A stretch of DNA of 64,000 nt, taken from positions 96,001 through 160,000 of the forward strand of contig JBMNIW010000004.1 in assembly GCA_050951325.1 (NCBI GenBank), given 5' to 3'. Within the stretch, counting starts at the first letter, position 1; every line of letters starts with the position of its first letter. The notes under the pieces are model-generated. The model was given only the letters and a program-made list of their open reading frames with translations, had not been told where the DNA came from and ran no database searches. This DNA is from Clostridia bacterium. Lineage in GTDB: Bacteria; Bacillota; Clostridia; UBA1212; DUPL01. Below are positions 3,642 to 39,636 of this stretch, one piece after another. The position numbers and the translations under genes were made by a program.

Positions 3642-3662
3642 AATTCTTCACTCCCTTCATAA

Positions 3663-4460
3663 TCAAGAACCTGTCAGACCCTTGTAATCGAACATGGCAT
3701 CATCAAATTTTCTCAGCTCAACTCCAAGTTTTATTAATATCTTCTCAGAGATGATATATGGTTCTTCCTTGAGACTTTGTTCGAGCAGTATCTCATGGAT
3801 GTTGTCCGCATGCATTTTGACTCGTGCACCAAGTATAAAGGTGTCATCTATGGGAAAAGAGATATTCCTTGCACCAAGTTTCTTTCTCAACATAAGAACG
3901 GAAAACAAATCCGCCAAAGGATAAAAACCTGTAAGCTGGTTTATTCCCACATAAGGCAGTTTGGCAAAACCTGAACTTATGTATCTGATATCGGTACAAA
4001 GCTCCCTAATTCTGGAATACTCTTCTGAAAGCAGTTTGTTGGCTATAAATTTGGTGGCGTATTCAATCCAGAATCCGTACCCGATAAGGCAGTTTGCATT
4101 AAAGGAAAATTGCAGTATGTCGCTTCTTTTTACACAGCAGCTTCTTGTTACATAAATTCTCGCCATTTCAGTATACACAGCGCCGGTTACGTAAAAATCC
4201 GTCAGTTTTGGCACATCCTTTATCAATACATATGCCTTGTCCTGATATATAAGTGTGGTGGCATTTGACAGTTCGCCCTGTTCATTCAGGGACATTAATG
4301 TGAACAAGTCCCTGCCGTTCCTTTCAAATATGCCTTCTATCCTTTCAAGCAGCTTGTCCTCCCTGGCAATTTCAATATCTACCGGGTATTCCTTCAGGAT
4401 ATTGCAGGGAAACTTGGAAAGGAAGCGCTCTTTTGCACTTAGAATAGAGATGGTTTTCAT
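3663..4460 (-). CDS. Hypothetical protein, paralog of 2814..3641
   Basis: Start moved to MKTISIL at 4460, after an AGGAGG RBS. Shares motifs with its neighbour. Confidence 0.75.
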   Translation of the reverse strand: MKTISILSAKERFLSKFPCNILKEYPVDIEIAREDKLLERIEGIFERNGRDLFTLMSLNEQGELSNATTLIYQDKAYVLIKDVPKLTDFYVTGAVYTEMARIYVTRSCCVKRSDILQFSFNANCLIGYGFWIEYATKFIANKLLSEEYSRIRELCTDIRYISSGFAKLPYVGINQLTGFYPLADLFSVLMLRKKLGARNISFPIDDTFILGARVKMHADNIHEILLEQSLKEEPYIISEKILIKLGVELRKFDDAMFDYKGLTGS

Positions 4461-21983: not shown

Positions 21984-23140
21984 ATTCTTGCTACACCTGT
22001 ATCTCTTGCAGCCTGTGCTACAGCTTCCGCAACAACCCTTGCCACATCCTTGTTGAAAGGATCGGGTATTACATAATCGGGATTAAGCTCGTTTTCGTGA
22101 ATCAGATCCGCCAAAGCCTTTGCTGCTGCAATTTTCATTTCATCATTTATATCGCTGGCCCTTACATCAAGCGCACCTCTGAAAATGCCCGGGAATGCAA
22201 GGACATTGTTAATCTGATTAGGAAAATCGCTTCTGCCGGTGCCAACCACACGGGCTCCTGCATTCTTTGCATCATCAGGCAAAATCTCAGGAATGGGATT
22301 TGCAAGAGCAAATATCACAGGTTCCTCTGCCATGGACTGAACCATCTCAGGAGTAACCATGTTCGGACCCGACACACCTATAAATACATCTGCGCCCTTG
22401 ATTACTTCTGCAAGAGTTCCTTTTTTCATTTGAGTGTTGGTAATGTCAGCCATCATGACCTTTTCACTGTTCAAATCTTCCCTGCCTTTGTAGATGGCGC
22501 CCTTTCTGTCACACAGGACAACATTTTTAAGCCCCATGGACATGAGAAGCTTTGTAATGGCTATACCGGCAGCTCCACTGCCATTCACAACCACTTCGAC
22601 ATCCTCCAGCTTCTTGTTGACGATTTTAAGGCCATTCAACATGGCAGCAAGAACAACAACAGCCGTTCCATGCTGGTCGTCATGGAATATGGGGATATCG
22701 CATACTTCCTTCAACCTTCTCTCTATTTCAAAACATCTTGGTGCTGAAATGTCTTCCAGATTCACGCCGCCAAAACTGCCGGACAAAAGACTGATAGTCT
22801 TGACTATCTCATCCACATCTTTTGAGCGAATACAAAGAGGAATTGCATCCACATCTCCAAATTCCTTGAAAAGAACGCATTTTCCTTCCATAACTGGCAT
22901 TCCTGCTTCAGGACCAATGTCGCCAAGGCCGAGTACGGCAGTACCGTCCGTTACAACACATACAGTGTTCCATCTTCTTGTGTAAATATAGGATTTGTCA
23001 ACATCCTTGCTTATTTCCTTGCAGGGCTCTGCAACTCCTGGTGTATAGGCCACAGCAAGCTCGTCTCTGTTACTTACCTGCGCCCTTACCTTTACCTCTA
23101 TTTTACCTTGCCATTCTTCATGCTTTTTTAGTGCGTCCAT
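21980..23140 (-). CDS. NAD(P)-dependent malic enzyme
   Basis: AYTPGVAEPC, DGTAVLGLGDIG, FHDDQHGTA, GSGAAG, NQINNVLAFPG. Confidence 0.96.
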   Translation of the reverse strand: MDALKKHEEWQGKIEVKVRAQVSNRDELAVAYTPGVAEPCKEISKDVDKSYIYTRRWNTVCVVTDGTAVLGLGDIGPEAGMPVMEGKCVLFKEFGDVDAIPLCIRSKDVDEIVKTISLLSGSFGGVNLEDISAPRCFEIERRLKEVCDIPIFHDDQHGTAVVVLAAMLNGLKIVNKKLEDVEVVVNGSGAAGIAITKLLMSMGLKNVVLCDRKGAIYKGREDLNSEKVMMADITNTQMKKGTLAEVIKGADVFIGVSGPNMVTPEMVQSMAEEPVIFALANPIPEILPDDAKNAGARVVGTGRSDFPNQINNVLAFPGIFRGALDVRASDINDEMKIAAAKALADLIHENELNPDYVIPDPFNKDVARVVAEAVAQAARDTGVARI

Positions 23141-23156
23141 AAATACCCTCCATAAA

Positions 23157-23447
23157 TTATAGTCCTAGCTTTAAAGCCATTATTTCTTTAATTTCCAAAT
23201 CTATTTCCTTTTCTATTCTTGCTATATCTTTTGCAATATCTTCTATGGTTTCCTCAACCTTGATTTTTTTGAAATCTTTCGTGTGGGTCCGGGTTTGCTT
23301 GCCGGACTTTGCGTAGTTTTCATTTCTCCTTGCTCCAGAGACATTCTTCCTATTTTCGTTTATGCCCTGCTCGGTATCCTTATCCATTCTTCTTCTATGA
23401 TTGGGAGCTCTTCGATTGTTCTTACCCCTGTTAATATTCTCCGACAT
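23157..23447 (-). CDS. Hypothetical protein, basic disordered N-terminus and C-terminal coiled coil
   Basis: 96-aa ORF with GGAGG RBS; overlaps the upstream gene. Confidence 0.7.
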   Translation of the reverse strand: MSENINRGKNNRRAPNHRRRMDKDTEQGINENRKNVSGARRNENYAKSGKQTRTHTKDFKKIKVEETIEDIAKDIARIEKEIDLEIKEIMALKLGL

Positions 23448-24039
23448 CCAACTGCCTCCATTTCCTTATGGTAATAATCTCATTGTCATCATTGTTGATA
23501 TATACATTAAATCTATTACACTCTTCTTTAATGTATTTTCCCTCTTCCACCAGCACGTCATAATATCTTTCAAGTGCCAAATCATCAAAAAACGAAAACT
23601 CTTCCCTTACTTTATACAACACCCTGTTCAAATACAAATTTTCAGAACAATCGTACAAAATGGGTTCGTCCCGCCTCCTGTCAAAATCCTCAATCTGATG
23701 TGGTAGCAAGGTGCATTGTATCAGGCATTCGGGTTTTCTGTAAGTACCGAGCCTGTACTCACGGATGGGAACAAGACTTGATTCATAAAGAGACATATTC
23801 TCCTCATCATACAGCGCTCCTTCCGCTATGTAGGAAGCATCATCAGGCGCTTTTATTTTCACGGCCTTGTAGGTATCATCATAAAACTTTGTGCTGTCGG
23901 CAGGATGCAGATACGTGAGAAGAAATCTTTTTTTGAATTCATTTACCGTTATCTCCCTCTCGAAATACTGGTTCAGTTTTATGCCGCAATCCATTACTTC
24001 CTCAGCGCTGTCAATTTTTGTAAAATAAAACACCTTCAA
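23431..24039 (-). CDS. Hypothetical protein
   Basis: 202-aa ORF with GGGAGGAG RBS. Confidence 0.75.
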   Translation of the reverse strand: MKVFYFTKIDSAEEVMDCGIKLNQYFEREITVNEFKKRFLLTYLHPADSTKFYDDTYKAVKIKAPDDASYIAEGALYDEENMSLYESSLVPIREYRLGTYRKPECLIQCTLLPHQIEDFDRRRDEPILYDCSENLYLNRVLYKVREEFSFFDDLALERYYDVLVEEGKYIKEECNRFNVYINNDDNEIITIRKWRQLDVGEY

Positions 24040-24110
24040 TGTATGACTCCTCCCATGCCGATCTCAATTAGAGATTATAGCAAAAACAAGGAGTTATTGC
24101 AAATAAAACG

Positions 24111-24602
24111 TCAAATATTAATGCTGAAACCCGATACACTTAAAAAACTTTCTTGTTCAGATACCAGAAATACGTAAATGCCATCACCCAGCTCATTAAA
24201 AAAAGAATCCTCCACCCCATTATATGCAATTTCTATCCTCGCTGCCTTATCGATCAGCATATTCAAGACCCGGTTTACACAAACTGACCTTTCATCATCT
24301 TCAACATAAACAGTTTCTGATTCGCTTTCCGTCATGCCTGCAACAACGTCCTCGTAAACAAATATCATAACCTTGACATTTTGAGATGTAGGAAGAGCCT
24401 TCACACTTTCAAAGCATTTATCTCTGTCAAGCACCAGATTTCCGTCATCAAAGGAAATACAGTTAACAATCTCTCTGCCTAATAGATTCAAATTCCTTTT
24501 TTCGTCCCGCTTTAAAAATCCTTCATTAATAGTATTAATGCCCGTTAATGCAATCATCAAAAACATCCAGATTGCAACAACCCATGCAACCAGCTGATGC
24601 AT
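24111..24602 (-). CDS. Pilin/TadE-like small membrane-anchored protein 5
   Basis: Single N-terminal hydrophobic helix (MHQLVAWVVAIWMFLMIAL); last gene of the Tad-like operon. Confidence 0.55.
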   Translation of the reverse strand: MHQLVAWVVAIWMFLMIALTGINTINEGFLKRDEKRNLNLLGREIVNCISFDDGNLVLDRDKCFESVKALPTSQNVKVMIFVYEDVVAGMTESESETVYVEDDERSVCVNRVLNMLIDKAARIEIAYNGVEDSFFNELGDGIYVFLVSEQESFLSVSGFSINI

Positions 24603-24610
24603 ATTACCAC

Positions 24611-25021
24611 CTACGCAATTATCGAAACCTTAACACCTGCAGGTCTTAAGACCACTCCGGTAACCTTTTCGAAAATGGAAGGCTCCAGGCTGTACGCCAC
24701 AATCGTAAGCCTGTCGCCTGGATCAAGCTTTCTATTCAATATGTCTTCAATTTTGTAATATGTATCTGTCTGACCGGCCATAACACAGACCTCCAGCTTC
24801 ATTTCAACACAAAAGTCTCCCATTTTTGACAGGTCTTCGTTCAGATACGCCCAAACCTCGTCCGACAACATTCCTTTTGTGCTGACAGTTTCAGCCACAT
24901 CAAACAAAAGATCGTTGGTTCTTTCATTGACACCCGCATATATGCAAAATGATACGCCCGACAATATCAAATACACAAATACGAATATCGAAAGAAAGTT
25001 AGCAATAACCTTGCCGGCCAT
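24611..25021 (-). CDS. Pilin/TadE-like small membrane-anchored protein 4
   Basis: MAGKVIANFLSIFVFVYLIL N-terminal helix. Confidence 0.55.
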   Translation of the reverse strand: MAGKVIANFLSIFVFVYLILSGVSFCIYAGVNERTNDLLFDVAETVSTKGMLSDEVWAYLNEDLSKMGDFCVEMKLEVCVMAGQTDTYYKIEDILNRKLDPGDRLTIVAYSLEPSIFEKVTGVVLRPAGVKVSIIA

Positions 25022-25046
25022 CCAGACACCTCCCTAAAAAAATCGC

Positions 25047-25409
25047 CTACGCAGTTGCCTGTGATTCAATCACAAACAGTATTTCCTTCAACGAACCGTC
25101 TTCCTTGTAGGTTTTGGTCATCCTGTACAGAGCGGTATCACTGACCTTATCAATGTCATCCATTGTCGCTTCCTGCTGGCTATCATCAAGATACACCTTT
25201 ATGCCAAGCAATGCGGCATTCTTGATATAATATTTTACAGTATTCTTTGACACCAGCGAGCTGTCATTAATCATCATGTTTAGCCTTGTCTGATCCGCAC
25301 TCACAATGTCGGATGTGTCCCTAAAACCACTCATCTGTCCAATAACTGCATAACTTATCAAACCCAAAGTTAGAACAATAATAACTATGGAAGCAATTAC
25401 CTTCTCCAT
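25047..25409 (-). CDS. Pilin-like small membrane-anchored protein 3
   Basis: Start at MEKVIASIVIIVLTLGLISYAVIGQ after RBS AAAGGGG; paralog of 25423..25833. Confidence 0.6.
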   Translation of the reverse strand: MEKVIASIVIIVLTLGLISYAVIGQMSGFRDTSDIVSADQTRLNMMINDSSLVSKNTVKYYIKNAALLGIKVYLDDSQQEATMDDIDKVSDTALYRMTKTYKEDGSLKEILFVIESQATA

Positions 25410-25422
25410 CAATATTCCCCTT

Positions 25423-25833
25423 TCAATTTGATTGATCAATCATGGTTACCTGGACACGAATCACTTTTCCATCATGTCCGGTTTGCTTGTTCAACTTGAA
25501 CATTGCTCTTGAAGACAGCGACTCCATGTCTTTTGCTATCACTTGCTTGAATTCATTGTTTATCACCGAGTCTGTGTTCGGTACTACAAAACACTTGATA
25601 TTATTTGATTCATACACAAATTCATATTCAAGCTTGTCCATATTATCAAAATATCTTTGAACTTCCTCTTTACCGATTATGCTCCCATCTTTTACTCTTA
25701 AATTTAGTGCAGATGCGTCACTGCCTATGTGGTCTGAAATGTCCTTGTACTGACTGTTGACCTGGAACAAGCCATATCCAATCAGGCCAACAGTAACAAC
25801 CAGTAAAACACATAAAGCAATTACCTTTTCCAA
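25423..25833 (-). CDS. Pilin-like small membrane-anchored protein 2
   Basis: MEKVIALCVLLVVTVGLIGYGLFQ, TTG start after GGGGGG RBS. Confidence 0.6.
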   Translation of the reverse strand: MEKVIALCVLLVVTVGLIGYGLFQVNSQYKDISDHIGSDASALNLRVKDGSIIGKEEVQRYFDNMDKLEYEFVYESNNIKCFVVPNTDSVINNEFKQVIAKDMESLSSRAMFKLNKQTGHDGKVIRVQVTMIDQSN

Positions 25834-25862
25834 TTAGTACATCCCCCCGTATGTTTTTATCA

Positions 25863-25936
25863 GGTTTGGGATATACTTGCCAAGGACAAAGCTTCCCCCC
25901 AACAACTTCGCCTTCAGGCAAGCATCTCCAACAACC
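25863..25936 (-). other. Long intergenic stem-loop inside the Tad-like operon
   Basis: GGTTGTTGGAGATGCTTGCC...GGCAAGTATATCCCAAACC imperfect ~74-nt hairpin without a U-tract. Confidence 0.55.
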
Positions 25937-25939
25937 TTT

Positions 25940-26335
25940 TCATTTCATGGATGTAAACTCAATTTCGACAATGCCGGCACTTTCATCAGAGCGCATTATC
26001 CTTACTTCAAACACACCCTGCGGGTCTATTGGATAAGTATCAGGATCGTATGCCTCCCCCTCATAAACACAAGATCCGTTTATCATATCCCAAACCCTTA
26101 TAACCGCACCTCCTTTTAATTCATAATACCGGATTGCCGCTATTACATCCGTGCCCAGACATTTTGAGCCATCCCGTAGATTGGGCAGCATCACCTCCTT
26201 TATCTTTTCACTGTAATCGGCCTTTTCAGCCATGGTATTCAGAAGGGCGCTGTTCTGCTGGTATAAAGGTATGATAAATATTAATAAAGACAAAACCAGC
26301 GCACCTATTACCACCTCTGCCACAACCTTGTCCAT
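25940..26335 (-). CDS. Pilin-like small membrane-anchored protein 1
   Basis: Start at MDKVVAEVVIGALVLSLLIFIIPL. Confidence 0.6.
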   Translation of the reverse strand: MDKVVAEVVIGALVLSLLIFIIPLYQQNSALLNTMAEKADYSEKIKEVMLPNLRDGSKCLGTDVIAAIRYYELKGGAVIRVWDMINGSCVYEGEAYDPDTYPIDPQGVFEVRIMRSDESAGIVEIEFTSMK

Positions 26336-26339
26336 AACA

Positions 26340-26987
26340 TCACCATCCAAAACCGCTAATTTCCAGCATCTCTATCCAAGGTGCCAGCAAATATAATACA
26401 AGCACCGTTAAGGCAACAAACAATCCCAACACTCCAACTATATTGATTATCTCAACTTTCTTCTTTACTTTCCTTATGCTCTCCCTTTTCTCCCTAGCAA
26501 AATCATCCTTTATAGTTTTTACTGACAAATCAAAATCATAGTTGCATGCCATGTCAAGTTTTTCATAAAAAAGCTTGACTTCCAAATCCTTTGCACTGGC
26601 CTTAAGTTCCTGGTAGAATATTTCAGTGTCAGTACTGCTTTTCTGGTGAGCTTCATATATCGCCACAAGATCCTTTTTAAAATGCTCCGACCTTGCTATC
26701 AGTGATTTCATGAGTTTTCCAAAGTCTACTGGTTTTACACTGCCGCATATAACAAACAGCTTTTTTAGAAAGTACAGCTCTTTTGCAAGTTTCGTCTTTA
26801 GATATACCTTTTTTAAAGACCTGTAGACCTCGGGCAAAAAGTAGCCAACACAGCTTGCAATAATGATTCTGTATATGTAAAGTAACTTGTTAATACCATT
26901 ATCCACCATCAAATCTGTAAAAAACATGGACAAGCCAAATATGAGACATACTCCCATACAAACAACATTCGCCTTTATACTTCTCAT
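26340..26987 (-). CDS. TadC-like inner-membrane platform protein
   Basis: Two N-terminal TM helices, a cytoplasmic helical domain and a C-terminal TM; follows the TadB-like gene. Confidence 0.6.
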   Translation of the reverse strand: MRSIKANVVCMGVCLIFGLSMFFTDLMVDNGINKLLYIYRIIIASCVGYFLPEVYRSLKKVYLKTKLAKELYFLKKLFVICGSVKPVDFGKLMKSLIARSEHFKKDLVAIYEAHQKSSTDTEIFYQELKASAKDLEVKLFYEKLDMACNYDFDLSVKTIKDDFAREKRESIRKVKKKVEIINIVGVLGLFVALTVLVLYLLAPWIEMLEISGFGW

Positions 26988-26990
26988 TCT

Positions 26991-27950
26991 CTACGACCTC
27001 TCTATAACAAATATGAGAAAAGCAAACCCAACAAGAATCGCATAGTACACAAGTCCAAGCATTATGCCTCCCCTGCCTGAATAAAACTGAATCGACTCCG
27101 CTCCTAATACCTTTTCATTAAAAATCCTCGCTGCAGGCACTGCAAAGGCAAAGGCAAGTCCCATTCCAATATACCCAAGAGCTGCAGCACTCAAGTCTTT
27201 ACTGTTTTCTATGTCATCTATGATGTCTTCAAGCATGTCGTTGAACTGTCCCTTAACAACCTCGTCCCCGCCGTTGTAATATGCATGCCAGATAAGCTCC
27301 AGTAGAAGAGACATATGTATGTTGGAATACTTTCCATCAATAGCGCTGAAGGTGTCCTTTATCCTATCCATATCATTCTGCTTCAGTGCATCGTATATCC
27401 TAATCATATCGCCCCTGATGCTCTTGTGGAAATCCTCGATGCTGACACCTATACACTTCACAATATTATTTAGGCTTGCATATCTTGCACTCAAAATCCT
27501 CAAGGTTTCAGGCATATGGCTTAAAAACCTTTTGTTGGCATACGACGCAAGGAATATAAGGCCGAGACAGACAATGGATGCAAATAGAAGAAGGTAAAAC
27601 ATTGCAATATACCATAGAGGAAAGAACACCACTGTCAAAACGCCTGCAAGTATCAGAAAAACCAAGACAAACAGAATCAAAAACAACGTAGCATATCTCA
27701 TGTTCACTGCATAGGATTTGGCATTGAATATGGAGAGTTTTAGAGACAGATCTTTCATCAGCCTTGCCAGGAATCTCGATCTGGCAAGAAAAGTACACAT
27801 ACTGTCAACTCTCTTTTCAAACAGGAGTTTTGAATCAACATTTCCATATTTTACTCTGTCTTTGAACTTGACTGCATGATATACACCATATGAAATTACC
27901 ATCACTCCACTTGTGGTGCATATGAATACCAAAGGCAAATACTCAACCAT
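26991..27950 (-). CDS. TadB-like inner-membrane platform protein
   Basis: TM helices plus a T2SSF-like segment (RFLSHMPETLRILS); directly after the ATPase. Confidence 0.65.
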   Translation of the reverse strand: MVEYLPLVFICTTSGVMVISYGVYHAVKFKDRVKYGNVDSKLLFEKRVDSMCTFLARSRFLARLMKDLSLKLSIFNAKSYAVNMRYATLFLILFVLVFLILAGVLTVVFFPLWYIAMFYLLLFASIVCLGLIFLASYANKRFLSHMPETLRILSARYASLNNIVKCIGVSIEDFHKSIRGDMIRIYDALKQNDMDRIKDTFSAIDGKYSNIHMSLLLELIWHAYYNGGDEVVKGQFNDMLEDIIDDIENSKDLSAAALGYIGMGLAFAFAVPAARIFNEKVLGAESIQFYSGRGGIMLGLVYYAILVGFAFLIFVIERS

Positions 27951-29595
27951 TCACATGACTCCCTTCAAATATACTCAACCCTTCTTCCATTACTTCTGAA
28001 CTTGCATACCTTGCCAGCTTGTCAAGATAGAAGTCTGATGGAGGCTCCACAAACACCCAATCCTCCCTTTCCATGTCATAACAAACTATCTCCCTAAGGT
28101 GGTACCTTCTTCCAAGAACCAGATCCTTTAACGCCTTTATACCAAGAATGTACAACTTTTTCTCCATCTCCCGCATGTCATCCACATTTGAGCCGAACTC
28201 GCAGTCCTCTCTGTCTATACATATCTCATGTATGCTCATTACCTTAATCCTCCCATCCTTCAGCCTTCCCAGATGAATAATCAAATCAATACTGCCCGCA
28301 ATATCCTCTTCCGCTGTATTCTTGTCGTTGTACATGGATGTCCTAAGCATGAGATTCCGTAGGTTTGGAACAACCTCTTGCGGTGAAAAAGAATGCATTG
28401 TGGCACAAACGCCAGCATTCAACCTCAATGCACTGTTTACAAGCTCCGCCACCTCTTCAGGCATTGTAATCTCACTGACACAAAGGACATCTCTAGATGT
28501 CTTTAAAAGATACGCAAAGCATTCGGAGAGGTTCTTTTTGTCATTCTCCACAAGAGTAATTACATTCTTTGACGGATATTTCCTGCTTACCTGCAGCTCA
28601 TTCTGTGGGTCCAGTATTCCAATTCCCCAGGAATCCGGGTACTTTTCCAGCATGGAAAGTAGAAAAGTGCTCTTTCCCACTCCCATGTCTGAGCCGGTGA
28701 CAAAAAAGCTGCCTCTTCCCGCCTGATTCATAATAAGGAACCTGTAAATCCCATCATTGATTGTGTTATACTTGTCCCTCATTTCTTCAAGAGTAATATT
28801 CTTCAAATTGAATATTCTCTCATTGTAGTACGCATCATCCGTACTGGGAGTTACTTCGTATCCTGCCACACTTATTCTGTTAAAATTGTTCTTGGAAGTT
28901 ACAACAATTGGATTTTGTCTGTCGTAGTTCAGTGATGAGTTCTGCGTTGTTTTCTTCTGAATGTTCAGTATGGTTCCGACACTGTCAAAGGACAAAAACA
29001 CAAGTCTTATCTTTCTACCCTTGTATGTAATATAAACATAATCCTTGTTAAGGACACCTATTTCGTTAATATCCTGGTTCTGCAAACTGTCTATGCAGTC
29101 CTGTCCATAGGCAAACGCATACAAAAGAATGGACAAAAATATGCATCTTTCCCTTTTGCTTTTGTATCTCCTTGTTATTGTGTCATCTTTATCCTCATTC
29201 CTTACTATCTCCCTTAGCTCCACCCAGGTAAGAACGTTTTCCACATGGTATTTGTCAATCATTTCTCCCAATCTTCTATTCTCCAGGAGGAACTCAAACA
29301 CTATCTGCGGTTCGTTGTCCAGAATGTTATCAAAGTTAATTATCCCCACCGTTTCCTTGTCCACATCAAATAGTTTACCGGATGACAACACCCTCACGTA
29401 ATAGTCTATTATATTGTTCCTTGCGTCCGCATCTCCTCTTGCAGCCATATCCTTAAGCTCTGTCATCATATTTATGGCAGACTCCGCCTGTTTCAAATCT
29501 ACATGGTAAACGGACATATACAACTCCACATCCGTAAGTATTCCCGAAACCTTGTTAAGAAGCCTTGTCCACTTTATATCCCTTGAAAGACTCAT
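27943..29595 (-). CDS. CpaF/TadA (VirB11-like) secretion ATPase
   Basis: Walker A GSDMGVGKST, Asp box DPQNEL, Walker B DVLCVSEI, His box ATMHS, IDLIIHL. Confidence 0.8.
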   Translation of the reverse strand: MSLSRDIKWTRLLNKVSGILTDVELYMSVYHVDLKQAESAINMMTELKDMAARGDADARNNIIDYYVRVLSSGKLFDVDKETVGIINFDNILDNEPQIVFEFLLENRRLGEMIDKYHVENVLTWVELREIVRNEDKDDTITRRYKSKRERCIFLSILLYAFAYGQDCIDSLQNQDINEIGVLNKDYVYITYKGRKIRLVFLSFDSVGTILNIQKKTTQNSSLNYDRQNPIVVTSKNNFNRISVAGYEVTPSTDDAYYNERIFNLKNITLEEMRDKYNTINDGIYRFLIMNQAGRGSFFVTGSDMGVGKSTFLLSMLEKYPDSWGIGILDPQNELQVSRKYPSKNVITLVENDKKNLSECFAYLLKTSRDVLCVSEITMPEEVAELVNSALRLNAGVCATMHSFSPQEVVPNLRNLMLRTSMYNDKNTAEEDIAGSIDLIIHLGRLKDGRIKVMSIHEICIDREDCEFGSNVDDMREMEKKLYILGIKALKDLVLGRRYHLREIVCYDMEREDWVFVEPPSDFYLDKLARYASSEVMEEGLSIFEGSHVNG

Positions 29596-30275
29596 GGACC
29601 ACTCACCTTGTTTACAAGATGCAGCCTTGTATCCAAATATCCTGTTAAAAGAGCATTGTTCAGCGTCCTGAACTCCTCTTCATTCACTGCAAGAATTATG
29701 GTGTAAAATCCGTCACTGTCCTTCAAATACTCACATTTGCCATTTACATTGGTACACAATATGTCATAAATCCTAATCCTGCTTATGACTTCCTGGTAGG
29801 AACCGTCCGGGAATCTTGCAATTATGTCCACATAGGTTCCCTTCATTGCAAGTTCTCCCACCAGACTTTTAACTTTGAATTCCTTAAGTCTTCTAGTGCT
29901 TGAGAACTCCTCCTCATCCTGTCCTACAAGGTCAAAAGATATCTGCTGCCCTTTAACAACCGTATACTTCAGCATCCTGTCTTTTATCAAATCAAAATCA
30001 CAAACAGCATTCTCAACGATCAGGTTTGCGGGCACTTTAACAACCTCAAAATTATTCCTGTTCACATCAGTTAGAACCACTCCTGACATAAGAGGGGTTT
30101 CTCCCTTGTATGTCAACACATCAACAAATGCGCCCGTACTCTTTTTATACATCTCCTCGTACACAAGGGATGTTTTCTTCTTAACCTGAGGAATTATCAA
30201 AAAGGTGTACAACGCCGCCAAAAGAGCAAGAGATGCAAGATAAATTGCCACGGTAAAGAAAGCACTCTTCTTCAT
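29592..30275 (-). CDS. CpaB/RcpC-like SAF-domain protein
   Basis: N-terminal TM, SAF-like segment, GTYVDIIARFPDG, IILAVNEEE. Confidence 0.65.
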   Translation of the reverse strand: MKKSAFFTVAIYLASLALLAALYTFLIIPQVKKKTSLVYEEMYKKSTGAFVDVLTYKGETPLMSGVVLTDVNRNNFEVVKVPANLIVENAVCDFDLIKDRMLKYTVVKGQQISFDLVGQDEEEFSSTRRLKEFKVKSLVGELAMKGTYVDIIARFPDGSYQEVISRIRIYDILCTNVNGKCEYLKDSDGFYTIILAVNEEEFRTLNNALLTGYLDTRLHLVNKVSGP

Positions 30276-30279
30276 ACAA

Positions 30280-31851
30280 TCAACCTCCCACCCGCATAAG
30301 CTTTGAAATTACAGTATCATAGCTTGACGCAATGTCGCATACATCATCATTTACATAATAGCTTCCCTTGACATTTCTTGAAACAAGTCTTCTTCTGTCA
30401 TATGGAATTGCGCCCAAATACTTGCTCCTACCCACAATCATGGAAATACCCGACTCAGGAAGACTTACCTTGTCTATGTAATCCCAGGCCACATACCTTA
30501 AATTTTCCTCCGATATGTATCCCTTTTGGGACAACCTGTGGTAATATGCACAGCACAATTGTATGTCGTCAACATTGGCATAAGGAACTGCAATTACATA
30601 GTCTGAATTTAGCATCATTGCATTCTTTACTGGTGACATTAGTCTTTCTTCTGCCGCCACTATTACAAGGTCGAAATTGTTGTATGCCCAGTGACAGAAA
30701 TTCCTCACATCCCTGACATCGTGAATTTCAAGTTCATCAAATATGCCACTTCGTGCAATATATAAATTACTGTTTGCGTCAAAGCTTTTTAAAAGGCCAC
30801 GCCTTACCCATTCTCTTGCGCTTCTGCCAAGATACGTCTTCATCCCATAATTCAGGCTGAAGATATCGCTCTCCGATACATAGGATGCATTTGATGTGCC
30901 GGAAAGATAATATGTAATAATATTATCCGTATCTGCAAGTTCGAATATGGCTGTTTTGTAATTCAGGAAAGTAGCCGCCACATACGCAAGCTCGCAGGCA
31001 AAACCCATGTTCCCATCCACTGTAACAACAATTCTCTTGTACCGGTTTACATATCTCACACTATTTATTTTTGCATTCACAGAAGTACGGGCATTTTTCT
31101 CCCCTTCTTTAAGGAGTTTAATCTCCCTCTTAAGCTCTTTCACATCAGCAAACCTGTCTTCTGGCTCAAACTTCATGCATTTCTCAAGAACTTTTCCAAA
31201 CTTCCCATATTCCTTAAGTCTCTTTCTGTTTACAGGAGGTTTTCCGGACATTGAATAAAGAAGCACTGCGCCTATTGAGTAAATGTCACTTGACAGCATG
31301 GGCTTGCCATACAAAACCTCCGGCGCTGAATATATTTCAGTCCCAAGAACCTTTGTCGTATATTCCTCAATATTCACCGCATTTTCTGATATGTGATAAG
31401 AAGCTTCAAAGTCGCAAATCCAGATTCTTTCAAGCTTTGAATCCACCAGGATATTGGACGGCTTCAAATCTACAAAAGCGTAGGGACCATCGGAGTGTTC
31501 ATGCATTTTTTCAATTACGTCGCACAGAAGCAAACCAAAATCCATGCATTGTTTTCCATCAATGCATCCTTTTTCTTTTATGTACTCTTCCAAGGTAATG
31601 GCCTCAATCCATTCACGGACAAGATACCGAAAATCACCTTCTTCGAAGCTGCATATGAACTTCGGAACAAAATCAAAGGAGAATGAACTAACTACTTTAA
31701 CCTCATTAACTCCACAAAGGTCATCACGGTCCCAACGCTTGATGCAAACTTCCTTGTCTGTTGCCATATCAATCGCCCGCTTAACCTTATCAGACGATGT
31801 ATCGTCAATAACCCTAAAGCGCTCACTCAAGCATACTTTCAGCTCACTCAC
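30280..31851 (-). CDS. Ser/Thr protein kinase fused to a degenerate MinD/ParA (CpaE/TadZ-like) domain
   Basis: VCIK, DLKPSN, DFE, GTEIYSAPE and SDIYSIG kinase motifs. The C-terminus (FACELAY, FDLVIV, SDYVIAVPYAN) resembles MinD/CpaE without a P-loop. GTG start at 31851 after AGGTGG. Confidence 0.75.
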   Translation of the reverse strand: MSELKVCLSERFRVIDDTSSDKVKRAIDMATDKEVCIKRWDRDDLCGVNEVKVVSSFSFDFVPKFICSFEEGDFRYLVREWIEAITLEEYIKEKGCIDGKQCMDFGLLLCDVIEKMHEHSDGPYAFVDLKPSNILVDSKLERIWICDFEASYHISENAVNIEEYTTKVLGTEIYSAPEVLYGKPMLSSDIYSIGAVLLYSMSGKPPVNRKRLKEYGKFGKVLEKCMKFEPEDRFADVKELKREIKLLKEGEKNARTSVNAKINSVRYVNRYKRIVVTVDGNMGFACELAYVAATFLNYKTAIFELADTDNIITYYLSGTSNASYVSESDIFSLNYGMKTYLGRSAREWVRRGLLKSFDANSNLYIARSGIFDELEIHDVRDVRNFCHWAYNNFDLVIVAAEERLMSPVKNAMMLNSDYVIAVPYANVDDIQLCCAYYHRLSQKGYISEENLRYVAWDYIDKVSLPESGISMIVGRSKYLGAIPYDRRRLVSRNVKGSYYVNDDVCDIASSYDTVISKLMRVGG

Positions 31852-31887
31852 GAATAACCACCTGCTTCGGTTTTTAGTCACAAATTA

Positions 31888-31916
31888 ATGATATCAGGTG
31901 TTTTTTTCTAAGTCCA
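31888..31916 (-). promoter_or_regulatory. sigmaA-type promoter of the Tad-like operon
   Basis: TGGACT-17nt-TATCAT with TG extension. Confidence 0.6.
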
Positions 31917-31967
31917 GCTTGGGCTTATTTCCCAAAAGTGATTTTTAGTTTTGCATTGTATGTAAAT

Positions 31968-32004
31968 AAAAAAACACCGTATCCTCCAAGAAATACGGTG
32001 AAAA
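31968..32004 (-). terminator. Intrinsic terminator after cwlD
   Basis: CACCGTAT...ATACGGTG stem followed by a T-tract on the minus strand. Confidence 0.75.
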
Positions 32005-32061
32005 GGCTTTGGATTATTTCCCAAAACGCCATATTTTGTTTTTTATGAGTAAAAATTTTTA

Positions 32062-32859
32062 TTAATTTGGTTTGGAAGTTGCATTTGGCTTTGATGAGGG
32101 ACCTGGTTTTGGTACATTAACTGTAAAATATTTGTCTATACCCAGCTTTATAGCATTTGCAAGCTTGGTCTGATATGCCTCGTCTATTAACTTCTTCTCT
32201 TCCGCCTCATTAGACAGGAAGCCGCATTCAACTATAACTGTTGTAACCTTGCAATCCTTTGTGATGATAATGTCCTCGCTCTTCATAAGCGCTTCCCTCT
32301 TGTTGGAGGGATCCACATTCTCCCTCAAGGCATCCTGTATGCTAATTGCAAGCTTTTTGCTGGCAGGAGAATTCTTTGTATAGAAGACTTGTGCTCCGGA
32401 ATACTTCGTCTGCTTGAACCCATTCATATGAATACTTATAACAATATCGGCATTGGACTCATCCATTAATTTCTTCCTATGCAGCAAATCCTGCCTTCTT
32501 TTTGCAGTATTGGACAGATTATCCCCTTCATAAACCAGAACATCTTCCGTCCTTGTCATAATTACGGTATACCCTGCTTTCTCAAGCAATTCCTTGAGCT
32601 TGAAAGCAATTGCAAGATTCAAATCCTTTTCCTTGGCCCCGCTGTACATGCTTGTGGCACCAGGATCTTCACCACCATGCCCCGGATCCAGAACAACCAC
32701 TTTTCCTTTAGTGTTTAATGTAGGTATTGTGGATGCTTCCACGCCATCCTTCTTGTTGCTTAGTCCCAAATTAACACCAACAATACCGAGTACAAGTACA
32801 AATATCAGAACACTCAGCATTATGTTGCTTCTTTTCAATATTACTATCAATGATGACAC
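32062..32859 (-). CDS. cwlD: N-acetylmuramoyl-L-alanine amidase (CwlD-like)
   Basis: N-terminal TM, LDPGHGG, EKDLNL, ISIHMN, GAQVFY, VECGFLSN. Confidence 0.8.
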   Translation of the reverse strand: MSSLIVILKRSNIMLSVLIFVLVLGIVGVNLGLSNKKDGVEASTIPTLNTKGKVVVLDPGHGGEDPGATSMYSGAKEKDLNLAIAFKLKELLEKAGYTVIMTRTEDVLVYEGDNLSNTAKRRQDLLHRKKLMDESNADIVISIHMNGFKQTKYSGAQVFYTKNSPASKKLAISIQDALRENVDPSNKREALMKSEDIIITKDCKVTTVIVECGFLSNEAEEKKLIDEAYQTKLANAIKLGIDKYFTVNVPKPGPSSKPNATSKPN

Positions 32860-32909
32860 CCCCTGTCATACCTTTTGATAAAGCATATTCATAAGGGAGT
32901 GTAAATATA

Positions 32910-33821
32910 CTAGAAAATTTTCAAATCTTCAACATTTCCGCCCATTTGCTCTATGGTGTTAACCACACTGAAAAAGTACCAATTCTGTTCTTTCCTTTCC
33001 TCTTCGCTCATCTCGGTACTTATCACAATTCTATCTCTAAGATCTATGGCATACTTCCTTAAAAGAGGAACGGCTCTGGAATCACCGTAATCAGCTAACA
33101 TATAGACAACGATATGTTTTACACTATCATCGTTTATACTCTTGAAGCATCTTCTCAGACATCTGTATGTATCATCACTTTTATGTTTTGTTATTGCATG
33201 TAGAAGATTCAGATACTTCATATCAATTTCATCAATATCATTTAGAAAACCAATCACCTTGTCAAAAGCCTGCATTGTAACAAGGCTTTCAACAATATAT
33301 TCCAGAATATTGTCATTGGCAGGATGGCACTTCTTGATACCTTCCAAAAGGTCATCCACCAAATCCTCATAAGCCTGGCTTAAAACCACCGCCTGCCTAT
33401 ATATTTCAAAAGCCTCATATTCATCCTTATCATTGTAAACCTCATTATATGGCTTTGCAATCACATCATCTTGCAGTATATTTTTCACACAGGGCTTGGT
33501 ATACTCAATTTCACTCAAGTAGTCAACAAAAAACCTGGGGGCCAGAATAATAAGATTTAGAGAGACAAGCTTTATAACTTCATATGTCTCTTCCTCGTTT
33601 TCAGGTTTCTTTATACTGTACAAGTACTCCTTAGGAATACCACCCAATTCTTCATTAAAAGTATTAAACCATTTTTCCGTAATTTCATCGAAATATTCGG
33701 TGTAATCGTCAAGACTGCCATCAAAACTTTCCAGCATTTCACTATTATGATACGGATTAATATCAGATATATATTTCGCATACTGCTTTACAAGTGTTTC
33801 CATCGTTCTGTTATCTTCCAT
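32910..33821 (-). CDS. Hypothetical protein with C-terminal HEAT-like repeat
   Basis: Start at MEDNRT after AAAGGAG; LADYGDSRAVPLLR. Confidence 0.7.
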   Translation of the reverse strand: MEDNRTMETLVKQYAKYISDINPYHNSEMLESFDGSLDDYTEYFDEITEKWFNTFNEELGGIPKEYLYSIKKPENEEETYEVIKLVSLNLIILAPRFFVDYLSEIEYTKPCVKNILQDDVIAKPYNEVYNDKDEYEAFEIYRQAVVLSQAYEDLVDDLLEGIKKCHPANDNILEYIVESLVTMQAFDKVIGFLNDIDEIDMKYLNLLHAITKHKSDDTYRCLRRCFKSINDDSVKHIVVYMLADYGDSRAVPLLRKYAIDLRDRIVISTEMSEEERKEQNWYFFSVVNTIEQMGGNVEDLKIF

Positions 33822-34461: not shown

Positions 34462-36981
34462 TTACCTTATTACCACTTTACCTCTCTCGTCCATGTACAA
34501 AAGCTTTCTGGCAGTTAGATAAATGGGTATTCCGTTTAGAATGACGCCTTCTTTCTTGAGCCAGTTCCTTACTTCAACAAGAGACTTGAAAGGCTTTTGT
34601 TCGTGTTGCAGCTTGATAATCCATCTTACTATTTCCTTGTAGTCATCGGCATATGGATTGTCGGACTTTACAAAGATACAGTTTGGCAAATTGAAATTTC
34701 TCGTAGGTATTTCCACAATGTTGATGTACTGCATGTAGTTTTGCACTATCGATATCAACAAAAACGGAGTCCACTCAACACCCAAATCAGGAAACGCGGA
34801 AAAATCCTTAATGCCTATCAAAGCCATATACTTCTTTTCCTCGAGTATGTTCAACACTTCCAGCTTAATGGCAGTAAGCTTGTCCTCTGTCAAACCAAGT
34901 TTTGAAACATGGACAAGTTTGTTTACATCACTTCTTAAAAACTCATCAGACAAACGACTTATAAGTTTTGCCTTCTTCACAATCTTTATCTGATTATCCT
35001 CGCAAAACTCGAAAAGTTCGTTTATCTTAATTTCCTGCTTATCCCTCAAATATCTTTTCACTATTGTATAATTGCATGCATCATTCGTGCCTTTTGCACC
35101 TATGTTTGGTCTTGAAAATTCATATTCTTCCTCAAACATATACTTAAGTATACCATAAAGTTTTGAATAGTTGGTAATACTATTTCTTTTTATAAAATCC
35201 GCAAAAGCAGATTCTTTTCGTATGACCCCGTATACCTTTCTGCAGGATACCGGTATCCCTTTGATAAGCTCGTCCAGCTTCTCACGAAGATTGATATAAT
35301 CTTCCTGAGTTATGTTCAACCTGTCTGAATGCATGTATGTGTTGTAGTCTATTGTAATAATGTCCTTGCATCTTGCCATGGTCTGGGCCATCATGGAATC
35401 GGAAGTTCCCATGAAGTAGCTTTTTAGATCCTTCTTGGTCACCTCTCCATTTTTCCTTATGAACTCCTTCAACTCATATGCAAAATCTATGCCCCGGTCT
35501 TTGGATATCAAATCCTTGGTAAAGTAATACTTGTTTTTGAGCTTGTACTTCAAAAACCCTTGCAGGAAATATCTGTTGTCAATATTCGACCTTGCGAGAA
35601 GCTCTTCCTTGAAGGCTTCAAATACCTCAAGATATGACAGCGCAACCCTGTCGCTTTCATCAATAAACTCCTCTATCCTCTGAACAAGGTCGTCGGGTAT
35701 GTATATGTAATCAGGATGAATGTAGGTACTCCTGTCACACAATACCGTAATTTCTACAATGCGTGCCTCCACAGCCTTGTTGGACTGCGGCAGTTTTATA
35801 TTCCCAAAGATATCCGTAATTCTTCTTCTAAATATCTCCATTTCCTCTTCATCCGAAACCTTGATTCCAAGAGGATAATATTTCTTCATGACAACCTCGT
35901 ACTTGTCAGCAAGACTCATCTGGTTGTTGCAGTAAACCGTATCAAAGCATGTGTAGTTCTTTTCAATAACTTTTTCAACCAGAAGTGCAGGAATTTCAAG
36001 CTCTTTCGAAGTCTCTTCCACTACTTCATACAGCTCATCGCTCTTGAAATACGGAAGTGCCTCCGACATGTATTTTTCAATATTGATATAGCTGAAATCG
36101 CCCGTCATTGAAAACAGACCGTACTTCTTGTTGTAACTCTGATGAGGCTTTAATGTGCTTTTGAGCAGGTATATGAATATGTCAACAATACTGTCATCAA
36201 CCATATTGGTTATGACATTCTCAAGAGCAATATCAGTATTGTCTGAAATAGCTGCAAAAAGGTTAAGAAACCTCTTTCTTTTGTCGCATTGTACAAAACC
36301 CTTGAACATAATCTCTTCCAGCTGTCTTACCCTCTCTCTAGTAATACCGCTGTCCCTGCCAACATCCTCCAATGGTCTGCCCTGAGAGCGACTTTGCAGT
36401 ATGTACATACACCTTTCAGTACCTGCAATCTTTTCCAGAGCATCACTTACCATGTCGTTGACATCAACACTCAAATACCTGACAAAGCTTTTTACAACAA
36501 GCATCTCTTTCTCATCGCACTCAAATTCCTTTATGACTTTTTCAATATCTGACACGTACTCAAGCACACCAAAATATCTGTTAAGAACTTCCAGCGAATG
36601 GATGTTGTCAGTATATGCGATAATATACGGCTTGAGTTTTCTCTGTTTAACATGGTCGGGAATTGTTTCGAAATGACTCAAAAGAAAATGGGTATCCCCC
36701 ATGCCTTGATCATTCAATAGTTTCTGGGAATTCCTGTCTATAGCATTGACCTTTTCCCTGATTTCCTTCAAACTACCCTTCCCCAGTCTGCTGATAGACA
36801 AAAGATCTTCGTCAGGCATTTCCTTAATATCATTTACAATTATAATATTATTCTCAATCAAACAGTTGTACGCTCTAGTAGACAAAAAAAGATCCTCAAT
36901 GGTAAGTTCGCCTTTTGCATATATTTCCGCAATTTGTGGGTCGATATATTCTTCATTTCGTTTTATAGTTAGTTTTTTCAA
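34462..36981 (-). CDS. RNA polymerase alpha-CTD plus sigma70 region-4 domain protein (839 aa)
   Basis: TIEDLFLSTRAYNCL...LLSISRLGKGSLKEI (alpha-CTD) and GRPLEDVGRDSGITRERVRQLE (sigma region-4 HTH). Confidence 0.85.
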   Translation of the reverse strand: MKKLTIKRNEEYIDPQIAEIYAKGELTIEDLFLSTRAYNCLIENNIIIVNDIKEMPDEDLLSISRLGKGSLKEIREKVNAIDRNSQKLLNDQGMGDTHFLLSHFETIPDHVKQRKLKPYIIAYTDNIHSLEVLNRYFGVLEYVSDIEKVIKEFECDEKEMLVVKSFVRYLSVDVNDMVSDALEKIAGTERCMYILQSRSQGRPLEDVGRDSGITRERVRQLEEIMFKGFVQCDKRKRFLNLFAAISDNTDIALENVITNMVDDSIVDIFIYLLKSTLKPHQSYNKKYGLFSMTGDFSYINIEKYMSEALPYFKSDELYEVVEETSKELEIPALLVEKVIEKNYTCFDTVYCNNQMSLADKYEVVMKKYYPLGIKVSDEEEMEIFRRRITDIFGNIKLPQSNKAVEARIVEITVLCDRSTYIHPDYIYIPDDLVQRIEEFIDESDRVALSYLEVFEAFKEELLARSNIDNRYFLQGFLKYKLKNKYYFTKDLISKDRGIDFAYELKEFIRKNGEVTKKDLKSYFMGTSDSMMAQTMARCKDIITIDYNTYMHSDRLNITQEDYINLREKLDELIKGIPVSCRKVYGVIRKESAFADFIKRNSITNYSKLYGILKYMFEEEYEFSRPNIGAKGTNDACNYTIVKRYLRDKQEIKINELFEFCEDNQIKIVKKAKLISRLSDEFLRSDVNKLVHVSKLGLTEDKLTAIKLEVLNILEEKKYMALIGIKDFSAFPDLGVEWTPFLLISIVQNYMQYINIVEIPTRNFNLPNCIFVKSDNPYADDYKEIVRWIIKLQHEQKPFKSLVEVRNWLKKEGVILNGIPIYLTARKLLYMDERGKVVIR

Positions 36982-39093: not shown

Positions 39094-39636
39094 TTATCCT
39101 TCGCTGTGTTTGGCAAGTATAAATCCGTGCAGTGCGGAAGTAGCAGACAAGGCGTAGCTAATCTGACTCAGATTGCCCATGACAGGCCCCATGATACCAC
39201 CAAAGAATTGTGCTTTAATCTGCTTCTCCCTCAAGTCATCGCTGAGAATTTCAAACTCCTGCTTTGCTGTTTCTTCCTGGCAAAATACTTTCTCTGAGTA
39301 GTACCTTCTACTCATCTTTCCTAGCGTGTTGGCTGCATAGATCAATAAAGGCACCGTAACTATCGTAACTATTGCGAGTATCCAGTTGGTAACGAACATA
39401 AGTACAATCGTACCAATGAGAGTTATGGTTCCCGAGAAAATCTGTGACATGGTACTGTTGAGCATCACACCGACCGAGTCCAAATCATTTGTAAAACGGC
39501 TCATAAGGTCGCCATGAGTGTGAGTGTCCTGATATTTCACAGGCAGTCTCTGAATGCTTTTGAACAGTTCTCTTCTAATACGGGCAATGGCTTTCTGAGA
39601 CACGCCAATCATTATTCTCTGCTGCAGGTACGAATA
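39094..39636 (-). pseudogene. Internal fragment of a multidrug ABC transporter membrane domain
   Basis: SYLQQRIMIGVS...IQRLPVKYQDTHTHGDLMSRFTNDLD. Lacks the N-terminus and the NBD. Confidence 0.8.

Follow-up and report, generated by a model that had tools for sequence, protein, structure and literature searches.

The 64-kb stretch of DNA analyzed here (the window, to which all of the coordinates refer) is a chromosomal sequence from a low-GC (~40%) member of the Clostridia. Besides rpoB, rpoC, rpsL, rpsG, fusA, tuf, and the spore-cortex amidase gene cwlD, it encodes ten open reading frames (ORFs), designated G1–G10, which lie on the minus strand between positions 24111 and 31881 and share the same orientation. 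The first of these genes fuses a Hanks-type Ser/Thr kinase domain to a domain of the MinD/ParA fold, and the cluster as a whole probably codes for a machine derived from the Tad (type IVc) pilus. The features of the locus, with the evidence behind their assignment, are as follows:

30280..31881, minus strand: G1, head gene, Hanks-type Ser/Thr kinase plus MinD/ParA-fold domain (Pfam, AlphaFold2 (AF2) fold match)
31123..31788, minus strand: kinase domain of G1, residues 32–253 in the 533-aa numbering (invariant catalytic residues)
30283..31050, minus strand: MinD/ParA-like domain of G1 in the TadZ/CpaE position, residues 278–533 (profile, AF2, Foldseek)
29592..30275, minus strand: G2, N-anchored CpaB/RcpC-like protein, 227 aa (family-level Pfam matches)
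27943..29595, minus strand: G3, secretion ATPase resembling CpaF/TadA, 550 aa, long extension at the N-terminus (PDB, NCBIfam)
26991..27950, minus strand: G4, polytopic platform protein of 319 aa, divergent T2SSF (TadB-like) type (remote relatives)
26340..26987, minus strand: G5, second platform protein, putatively TadC-like, 215 aa (fusions, position, Atlas leads)
25940..26350, minus strand: G6, small N-anchored protein, probable start at 26335 (131 aa) (paralogue family of G7/G8)
25834..25939, minus strand: G6–G7 gap, 106 nt, with a stable stem-loop (folding versus shuffles)
25423..25833, minus strand: G7, small N-anchored protein, 136 aa, TTG start (tandem paralogue of G8)
25047..25439, minus strand: G8, small N-anchored protein, probable start at 25409 (120 aa), candidate major subunit (alignment A8)
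24611..25021, minus strand: G9, small N-anchored protein, 136 aa (alignment A10)
24111..24602, minus strand: G10, small N-anchored protein, 163 aa (homologue in group-B loci)
31882..32061, minus strand: cwlD–G1 intergenic region with a terminator-like hairpin, two GGGAAATAA motifs, and a promoter-like match

The first-pass annotation of this DNA had described ten co-oriented, tightly packed genes in the order kinase-MinD fusion, CpaB/RcpC, CpaF, TadB, TadC, and five small proteins. Both the packing and the order proved correct, and the minus strand can now be added. When the probable starts are used, the spacings from G1 to G10 are 4, −4, −8, 3, 4, 106, 13, 25, and 8 nt, and each of the ten starts is preceded by a purine-rich ribosome-binding site. 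The longest ORF of G1 is 533 aa; a GTG codon at 31851 with AGGTGG 6 nt upstream is the likelier start and gives a protein of 523 aa, which is also the length of the identical database cluster P0001. The single sigmaA-type promoter that had been claimed for the operon did not hold up as evidence: the promoter-like sequence TGGACT-17-TATCAT (31916..31888), from which the end coordinate of the first-pass annotation derives, is a consensus match only, and 27 such matches are found in 10 kb against 26.4 expected from shuffles.

A survey in which one genome per species was scanned yielded 46 related loci, all of them from Clostridia. BLAST-detectable G2, G3, G4, G5, G6, G8, and G9 are present on one strand in 26 of the 46, and many of the other 20 loci end at contig ends. 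The order of genes seen in the window is kept in 24 of those 26 loci, the G6 gene being relocated in L015 and L034. Since the ten-gene cluster recurs as a unit in related genomes, it lies far beyond chance, and the synteny survey thus bears out its conservation as a G2–G9 set. In a quick IQ-TREE of the ATPase, the clade of the window (group A) comprises 12 rows, all gut or rumen Oscillospiraceae-like metagenome-assembled genomes (MAGs), with a Shimodaira–Hasegawa-like approximate likelihood ratio test (SH-aLRT) support of 100. In every group-A locus the operon is preceded by cwlD, the identity of which rests on a match to TIGR02883 at 2e-65. Cultured members of group B are Pseudobacteroides cellulosolvens ATCC 35603, Alkaliphilus hydrothermalis DSM 25890, Sporosalibacterium faouarense, and Wukongibacter sp. 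M2B1 (NZ_CP138200.1); its neighborhoods vary between loci, and its G5 and G9 are longer than those of group A. An extra stand-alone MinD-like gene is inserted between G2 and G3 in all of the eight group-B loci mapped, and in L016 the product of this gene matches AAA_31 at 6e-5.

Bioinformatics analysis of G1 revealed a match to the Pfam Pkinase family with an E-value of 1.4e-27 and 97.2 bits (cut-off, 31.7). The sequence matches of its N-terminal half are bacterial and eukaryotic kinases, and the AF2 model of the whole protein (predicted local distance difference test, pLDDT, 77.8) has PknB as the top fold match (5u94; E-value, 2.3e-14). At least 12 database clusters align to G1 over at least 89% of its length in a search that scored only the 8000 candidates sharing most words and was swamped by generic kinases. 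Across 12 homologues that are ~30% identical, K48, E60, D138, K140, N143, and D157 are invariant. The VAIK lysine, the alpha-C glutamate, the D-x-K-x-x-N motif, and the DFG aspartate are all found in G1, and the glycine loop (GxGxxG) and the DFG glycine are missing. The window copy and 10 tabulated group-A relatives are non-RD kinases in which the nucleotide loop is free of glycine and DFG has become DFE; the motif table leaves out the group-A loci L010 and L011. The head gene of L010, from a Mageeibacillus-like MAG, is broken into two ORFs, one of 499 aa and one of 79 aa (2487–4207 of that locus), through a frameshift or an error of assembly. The 14 group-B kinase heads have a GxGGxG loop, an AIK lysine, and a canonical APE motif, most of them also have (Y/F)RD, and DFG is present in 13 (L023 has DFS).

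Alignment A3 combines the C-terminal 256 residues of G1 with the equivalent regions of 24 head genes in related loci. Against the PDB, the A3 profile has its hits among ParA-family (3ea0; E-value, 2e-9) and MinD-type proteins (6riq, 2.8e-7; 3q9l, 1.2e-4). For this domain, the AF2 model (pLDDT, 83.2; predicted TM-score, pTM, 0.85) gave 252 Foldseek matches at E ≤ 1e-3, which include MinD, ParA, FlhG, and FleN with TMq values of 0.55–0.66. The match to MinD 4v02_B has an E-value of 4.9e-9 and a TMq of 0.66; that to 3fkq, which we take to be the TadZ of Eubacterium rectale and the PDB title of which reads 'NtrC-like two-domain protein', has an E-value of 2.4e-7 and a TMq of 0.55. Thus, the proposed fusion of a kinase with a MinD/CpaE-like domain is upheld by Pfam, by profile comparison to the PDB, and by Foldseek. 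A sequence search with the same domain found at least five proteins, a count that is limited by the word index and is a weak guide to distribution. At the position of the MinD P-loop, the window copy reads VDGNMGFACE and lacks the deviant Walker A motif (KGGxGK[ST]). GK[TS]T or GTT persists in seven relatives (L013, L023, L025, L026, L027, L032, and L033); in another eight, the loop at this position is degenerate in a different way. Among the heads with an intact P-loop, the best match to the septum site-determining protein Ssd (TIGR03815) has an E-value of 1.6e-8.

The first gene is whole or nearly whole in 37 loci, and in every one of these a hidden Markov model of the head C-terminal domain detected that domain. 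The N-terminal region that precedes it is a kinase in 26 loci, a non-kinase module in 10, and degenerate in one (L038). Nine of the 10 non-kinase regions were aligned and have a (beta-alpha)5-like pattern, and the only top PDB matches of their profile are response-regulator receivers (E-values of 0.021 and 0.071). These weakly receiver-like modules lend comparative backing to the idea of the first-pass annotation that the kinase sits in place of the TadZ receiver domain. On the ATPase tree, the non-kinase heads appear in about three places among the kinase heads, hence the N-terminal module has been exchanged more than once.

The assignments of the next four genes draw on their families. The window copy of G2 matches only TIGR03177 (CpaB), with an E-value of 0.03. 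Of 24 members of the G2 family, 16 match PF16976 (RcpC) at E < 0.01, the best of these matches being 1.1e-6 and 29.0 bits against a cut-off of 28.8, with one member above the cut-off; three members match SAF. The G2 profile (A4) aligns to RcpC 9gzr with an E-value of 0.93, and the profiles A4, A5, and A9 gave nothing significant against the PDB. For G3, CpaF (8rkd) was matched over residues 170–458 with an E-value of 3.5e-9, and the best NCBIfam model is that of the TadA family TIGR03819 (4.5e-10; 39 bits versus a cut-off of 373). No Pfam match, T2SSE included, was obtained for the window copy; PF00437 is precomputed on part of its homologues. The Walker A motif GVGKST, E375, and H401 of the His box are invariant in 20 G3 homologues. 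The G3 family has at least 165 proteins at E ≤ 1e-3 among 8000 scored, and all of the 120 homologues listed are at E ≤ 1.3e-134; the few named ones among them are of CpaF/TadA type and come from Clostridia.

The best NCBIfam model of G3 belongs to a TadA family termed 'conjugal transfer-associated', and a DNA-uptake (competence) pilus, comparable to that of the Flp-pilus-dependent transformation of Micrococcus luteus, has to be considered. According to the available text of one report, Tad-like loci serve transformation in an actinobacterium (PMC4322843). Nevertheless, genes resembling ComEA, ComEC, or DprA were found neither among the window ORFs scanned nor in the ORF maps of eight loci. In addition, the operon is not flanked by mobile-element genes, and phage and plasmid collections hold only relatives of ≤29% identity, on which ground a mobile-element origin was rejected as well. 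A competence pilus therefore appears very unlikely.

None of the 24 members of the G4 family matches any Pfam family, T2SSF included. A profile search of 1.84 billion representatives returned 140 relatives, and five of the 46 remote relatives scanned carry PF00482 (T2SSF), two of them above the cut-off. Alignment of the G4 profile (A5) with this remote set by hhalign is strong (99.8%; E-value, 2.6e-29), and, judged by profile comparison, G4 is a very divergent T2SSF/TadB-like protein. The profile of G5 (A6) gave nothing relevant against the PDB; the Atlas leads for this protein are two clusters, one named 'secretion protein F family' (0.94) and one in which 28% of the members carry T2SSF (0.93). 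In three natural fusions (P0215, P0216, and P0242), a match to the G4 profile is combined with one to the G5 profile, and the C-terminal halves of nine ~680-aa proteins with G4-matching N-terminal halves align to the G5 family (A6; 96.2%; E-value, 2.1e-9). As G4-like and G5-like halves thus occur in single polypeptides, G4 and G5 are likely to work as two halves of one platform.

The degeneration seen in the head gene raises the possibility that the operon is a decaying relic in the clade of the window, left with a pseudokinase, a dead MinD domain, and no stand-alone MinD gene. Group A has indeed lost the glycine loop and the DFG glycine of the kinase, the P-loop of the MinD domain, and the separate MinD-like gene that group B has kept. 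However, the ten ORFs are intact and equipped with ribosome-binding sites, the kinase retains its catalytic K, E, D, N, and D in all of the 12 homologues at ~30% identity, the ATPase motifs show no change, and the gene set is retained across the well-supported 12-row clade. Decay of the operon is therefore scarcely credible.

Each of the five small proteins, G6–G10, has one N-terminal hydrophobic segment. G6, G7, and G8 are paralogues: the G6 family (A7) and the G8 family (A8) align by hhalign with 93.5% and an E-value of 2.2e-7, and G7 and G8 are 30% identical in alignment A8. G8 is the best conserved of the small proteins, with 26–59% identity to homologues from related loci. G9 has a conserved N-terminus, M-x-G-[KR] (A10), and its group-B relatives carry a ~110-aa C-terminal extension. 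The fifth small gene of the group-B loci proved to be a homologue of G10 (local hhalign, 97.4%; E-value, 1.2e-11), and no kinship of G9 or G10 to G6/G8 or to each other was detectable.

G7 starts with MEKVIA and has no leader. In 15 of 23 ORFs of the G7/G8 family, M-[EDK]-[KT], which precedes the hydrophobic helix, is the earliest start that the reading frame allows; hence, these 15 have no leader peptide. The absence of an Flp pilin and of a prepilin peptidase, as stated in the first-pass annotation, was confirmed within the scope of the scans: the Flp/type IV prepilin motif had no matches in the six frames of the window, and Peptidase_A24 was found neither in the 55 window ORFs scanned nor in 13 neighbors of related loci with multiple transmembrane (TM) segments, which are HlyIII, Rce1-like proteins, transporters, and the like. 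In L024, L028, and L040 (at ~18.0–19.3 kb), a seven-TM Rce1-like (CPBP) intramembrane protease is encoded downstream on the same strand; these three loci are without detectable G8 homologues.

The properties of the small proteins also fit a protein-export device similar to the pseudopiston of a type II secretion system (T2SS), in which a short pseudopilus of G6–G8 would push surface proteins through the wall. Their globular domains of ~100 aa are unlike Flp pilins, and co-oriented genes for secreted proteins directly follow the operon in several group-B loci. The products of these genes contain SLH domains (twice in L013, and in L042) or Cu_amine_oxidN1 (L021 and L036), and the Paenibacillus plasmid locus L047 also ends with an SLH protein. 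On the other hand, such a gene is missing behind G10 in the window and in the other group-A loci, no cargo signal is defined, and the Tad-type machines known so far make pili. Export as the function of the operon is thus possible, and we regard it as unlikely. As for the SLH and copper-amine-oxidase N-domain proteins encoded after the operon in L013, L021, L036, L042, and L047, they could be either cargo or wall anchors.

The 180-nt spacer between cwlD and G1 contains a terminator-like hairpin after cwlD (32000–31975) and the only two copies of GGGAAATAA in the window (32022–32014 and 31933–31925, minus strand). Both copies are located inside small hairpins (TTTGG..CCAAA and TTGGG..CCCAA). Related group-A loci, drawn from L001–L010, L030, and L039, have one to three copies of GGGAAAT with differing stem bases ~40–210 nt upstream of the head gene in 10 of 11 cases; in L010 the nearest copy is at −324, and the background in the other loci amounts to 124 copies per 526 kb. 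The GGGAAATAA hairpins could represent an operator or a regulatory hairpin. No Rfam match was obtained in the region 23000–33000. The G6–G7 gap is the only long one in the operon, and the region 25834–25945 folds with a minimum free energy of −35.2 kcal/mol (z, −2.94), as stable a fold being reached by one of 200 shuffles. This stem-loop has no U-tract, precedes the strong ribosome-binding site of G7, and may be a processing or stabilizing element that sets apart the expression of the small-protein genes.

The presence of the operon after cwlD in all of the group-A loci and its restriction to Clostridia are also what would be expected of a sporulation or division envelope device, the MinD-like head of which positions the septum or forespore, as was proposed for actinobacterial Ssd. 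Ssd (TIGR03815) is among the weak matches of the heads with an intact P-loop, and L023 and L042 are located near spoIVFB-like and ftsZ genes (names read off the N-termini, without a family scan). Against this, the terminator-like hairpin separates cwlD from the operon, the linkage to cwlD is limited to one clade, and the contexts of group B differ. No conserved sporulation-sigma promoter motif was found upstream; the sigmaE/sigmaK promoter idea was dropped, as the −10 motifs of sporulation sigma factors in front of the head gene showed no conservation from locus to locus. Such a role is, in our opinion, highly improbable.

Homology and fold support the identification of G3 as a CpaF/TadA ATPase, of G4 as a T2SSF platform protein, of G2 as a member of a CpaB/RcpC-like family, and of G1 as a kinase joined to a MinD/ParA domain. 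On balance, we favor the interpretation that the operon encodes a Clostridia-specific, monoderm, Tad (type IVc)-derived type IV filament machine with a kinase-TadZ head. In Caulobacter, as described in the available part of a report, a ring of six CpaE dimers was fitted to surround the CpaF hexamer, the dimers being connected through their receiver domains (PMC13170226). By analogy with this CpaE, the MinD-like domain of G1 would take the TadZ/CpaE role and ring the G3 motor, and the kinase domain would occupy the position of the TadZ receiver. G4 and G5 would provide the platform at the membrane, G2 may form an N-anchored ring outside it, and the G3 ATPase would drive the assembly of a filament or a short pseudopilus from G6, G7, and G8, with G9 and G10 as putative minor or priming subunits. 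Most of the subunits would be made without a leader, and a prepilin peptidase would thus be unneeded. The kinase may link phosphorylation, or in group A merely protein contacts, to how the machine is assembled or placed. That leaderless subunits are polymerized without a prepilin peptidase and that assembly is gated by a Ser/Thr kinase within a TadZ-like ring is a bolder proposal, which we consider doubtful.

Several observations weigh against the filament machine proposed here or against parts of it. The window's own G2, G3, and G4 score below every curated family cut-off, and G5 has no significant direct match to T2SSF (hhalign A6 versus A9, 2.2%; A5 versus A6, 1.5%). Curated MinD, BcsQ, and Ssd models match the intact-loop head copies only weakly and below threshold, and none of these models matches the six P-loop-less copies scanned, including that of the window, or the GTT-type copy of L013. 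The receiver-like nature of the non-kinase head modules, at E-values of 0.02–0.07, is suggestive but not significant. G6–G10 match no Pfam or NCBIfam pilin family and could be structural membrane parts rather than polymerizing subunits. The homologues in L013, L021, L036, and L042 carry a leader of ~10–20 residues ending in K/R-G-G and may therefore be processed by a peptidase encoded elsewhere. Finally, the group-A kinase is without the glycine-rich loop and without the glycine of DFG, so that it appears as likely to be a scaffold or to have low activity as to signal. For all members of the family, filament formation, secretion, and phosphorylation are predictions made from sequence. Of the phosphorylation-controlled machine put forward in the first-pass annotation, the anatomy stands; the control by phosphorylation is unproven, because the kinase of group A has no glycine loop, carries DFE for DFG, and is non-RD, and the MinD P-loop has been lost. 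In the clade of the window, it is the kinase nucleotide loop and the MinD P-loop that have decayed.

Among the core parts of Tad systems, TadZ/CpaE is the one understood least, and here its receiver-like module appears to be swapped for a kinase. The cultured, non-pathogenic Clostridia relatives, in which both modules remain catalytically canonical, offer a handle on how such a ring controls assembly. If the leaderless, kinase-gated arrangement is true, its logic of regulation and biogenesis would be new to type IV filament systems; the lack of both leader and peptidase, if real, would relax a rule taken to define type IV filaments. The machine family is widespread in gut and cellulolytic Clostridia.

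Several other genes of the window deserve mention. An 839-aa protein of unusual architecture (34462–36981, minus strand) has an N-terminus similar to the RNA polymerase alpha subunit's C-terminal domain (3.3e-14) and a weak sigma-70 region 4. An 878-aa protein (11163–13799, plus strand) has a CotH kinase domain at its C-terminus (1.6e-48); this protein and cwlD suggest a spore-forming host. Two DDE transposase genes (56739–58433 and 58949–60274) are located in a stretch of lower GC content, and a 172-aa fragment of an ABC-transporter membrane domain (39094–39612), probably a truncated gene, lies beside a MarR gene.

Tad loci carry TadZ/CpaE, which consists of an atypical receiver domain and a MinD-like ATPase, together with the Flp pilin and the TadV peptidase. 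The operon of the window shares with the Tad/Flp systems of Caulobacter (Cpa) and Aggregatibacter (Tad) a CpaF/TadA-type ATPase, two separate putative platform genes, an N-anchored protein of a CpaB/RcpC-like family, and an accessory protein of the MinD fold encoded next to the ATPase gene. The order of the core genes is the same, with the gene in the TadZ position followed by the CpaB-like gene, the ATPase, the two putative platform genes, and small proteins with hydrophobic N-termini. Unlike these systems, the locus of the window has no Flp pilin (G/XXXXEY) and no TadV/CpaA peptidase; the absence of a secretin from the window is expected for a monoderm host. A kinase replaces the receiver-like domain of TadZ, the MinD domain is devoid of Walker A, the ATPase has an extra N-terminal region of ~100–170 residues, and the Tad-type components score below the curated family cut-offs.

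When compared with TadZ/CpaE alone, including the E. rectale protein (3fkq), the model of the G1 C-terminal domain superposes, the gene has the same place at the head of the operon, and 10 related loci have a weakly receiver-like N-terminal module. G1 has the MinD fold, but it does not combine a receiver with a MinD-like domain containing the deviant Walker A motif: its N-terminal module is a kinase. According to the available texts, the deviant Walker A of TadZ serves ATP-dependent dimerization (PMC13170226, PMC6668835), and this motif is absent from G1 of the window. The second of these sources records Tad systems in Clostridia and Bacilli, and the word 'kinase' is absent from its text as far as available (PMC6668835).

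The actinobacterial Tad-like 'helicase/secretion neighbourhood' and Ssd (TIGR03819 and TIGR03815) resemble the operon in being monoderm Tad derivatives. However, the matches to both models are far below the cut-offs (39 versus 373 bits and 34 versus 154 bits, respectively), and, unlike the window locus, the model descriptions include no kinase. A Hanks-type kinase inside an envelope-machine locus of Bacillota is also known from novel subtypes of the type VII secretion system (T7SS). In the accessible part of that work, the Ser/Thr kinases encoded in the locus are described as separate proteins, often with FHA partners (PMC11217815), whereas the kinase of the window is covalently fused to a MinD-like scaffold and the operon contains no FHA or phosphatase gene. 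No description of a kinase-TadZ/CpaE fusion was found in the full-text literature (subscription-only papers and supplements lay outside its scope), nor was a characterized system that matches the whole cluster found in the literature.

The closest described system is, on the available text, the kinase-less pilus cluster of TANB77, an uncultured order of Clostridia, which was annotated from sequence and predicted structures (PMC11680825). Thus, the earlier designation of the operon as uncharacterized is justified insofar as no matching characterized system was found, but a cluster of similar layout that lacks the kinase has already been described. Table 1 of that paper comprises CpaB, a TadZ-like and a CpaE-like protein, TadA, a TadC/TadB fusion protein, and seven 'pilin-like' proteins with an N-terminal anchor; a kinase, a peptidase, or electron microscopy is not mentioned in the text available (PMC11680825). 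Both clusters belong to Gram-positive gut Clostridia and encode N-anchored proteins without a recognizable pilin family. TANB77 differs in having a fused platform protein of 693 aa, an ATPase of 640 aa, two separate MinD-type proteins, and no kinase; compared by description, the putative platform of the window is divided between two genes, the head gene includes a kinase, and a stand-alone MinD gene is lacking. The TANB77 layout is shared by the Paenibacillus plasmid locus L047, which is only distantly related to the families of the window (ATPase, 1.9e-34; CpaB-like, 3.3e-14; MinD-like, 2.8e-5) and the platform protein of which has no match to them. According to the same report, the TANB77 cluster has been linked to immunotherapy response (PMC11680825), and, because it is similar in layout to that of the window, what these machines build may be of practical interest.

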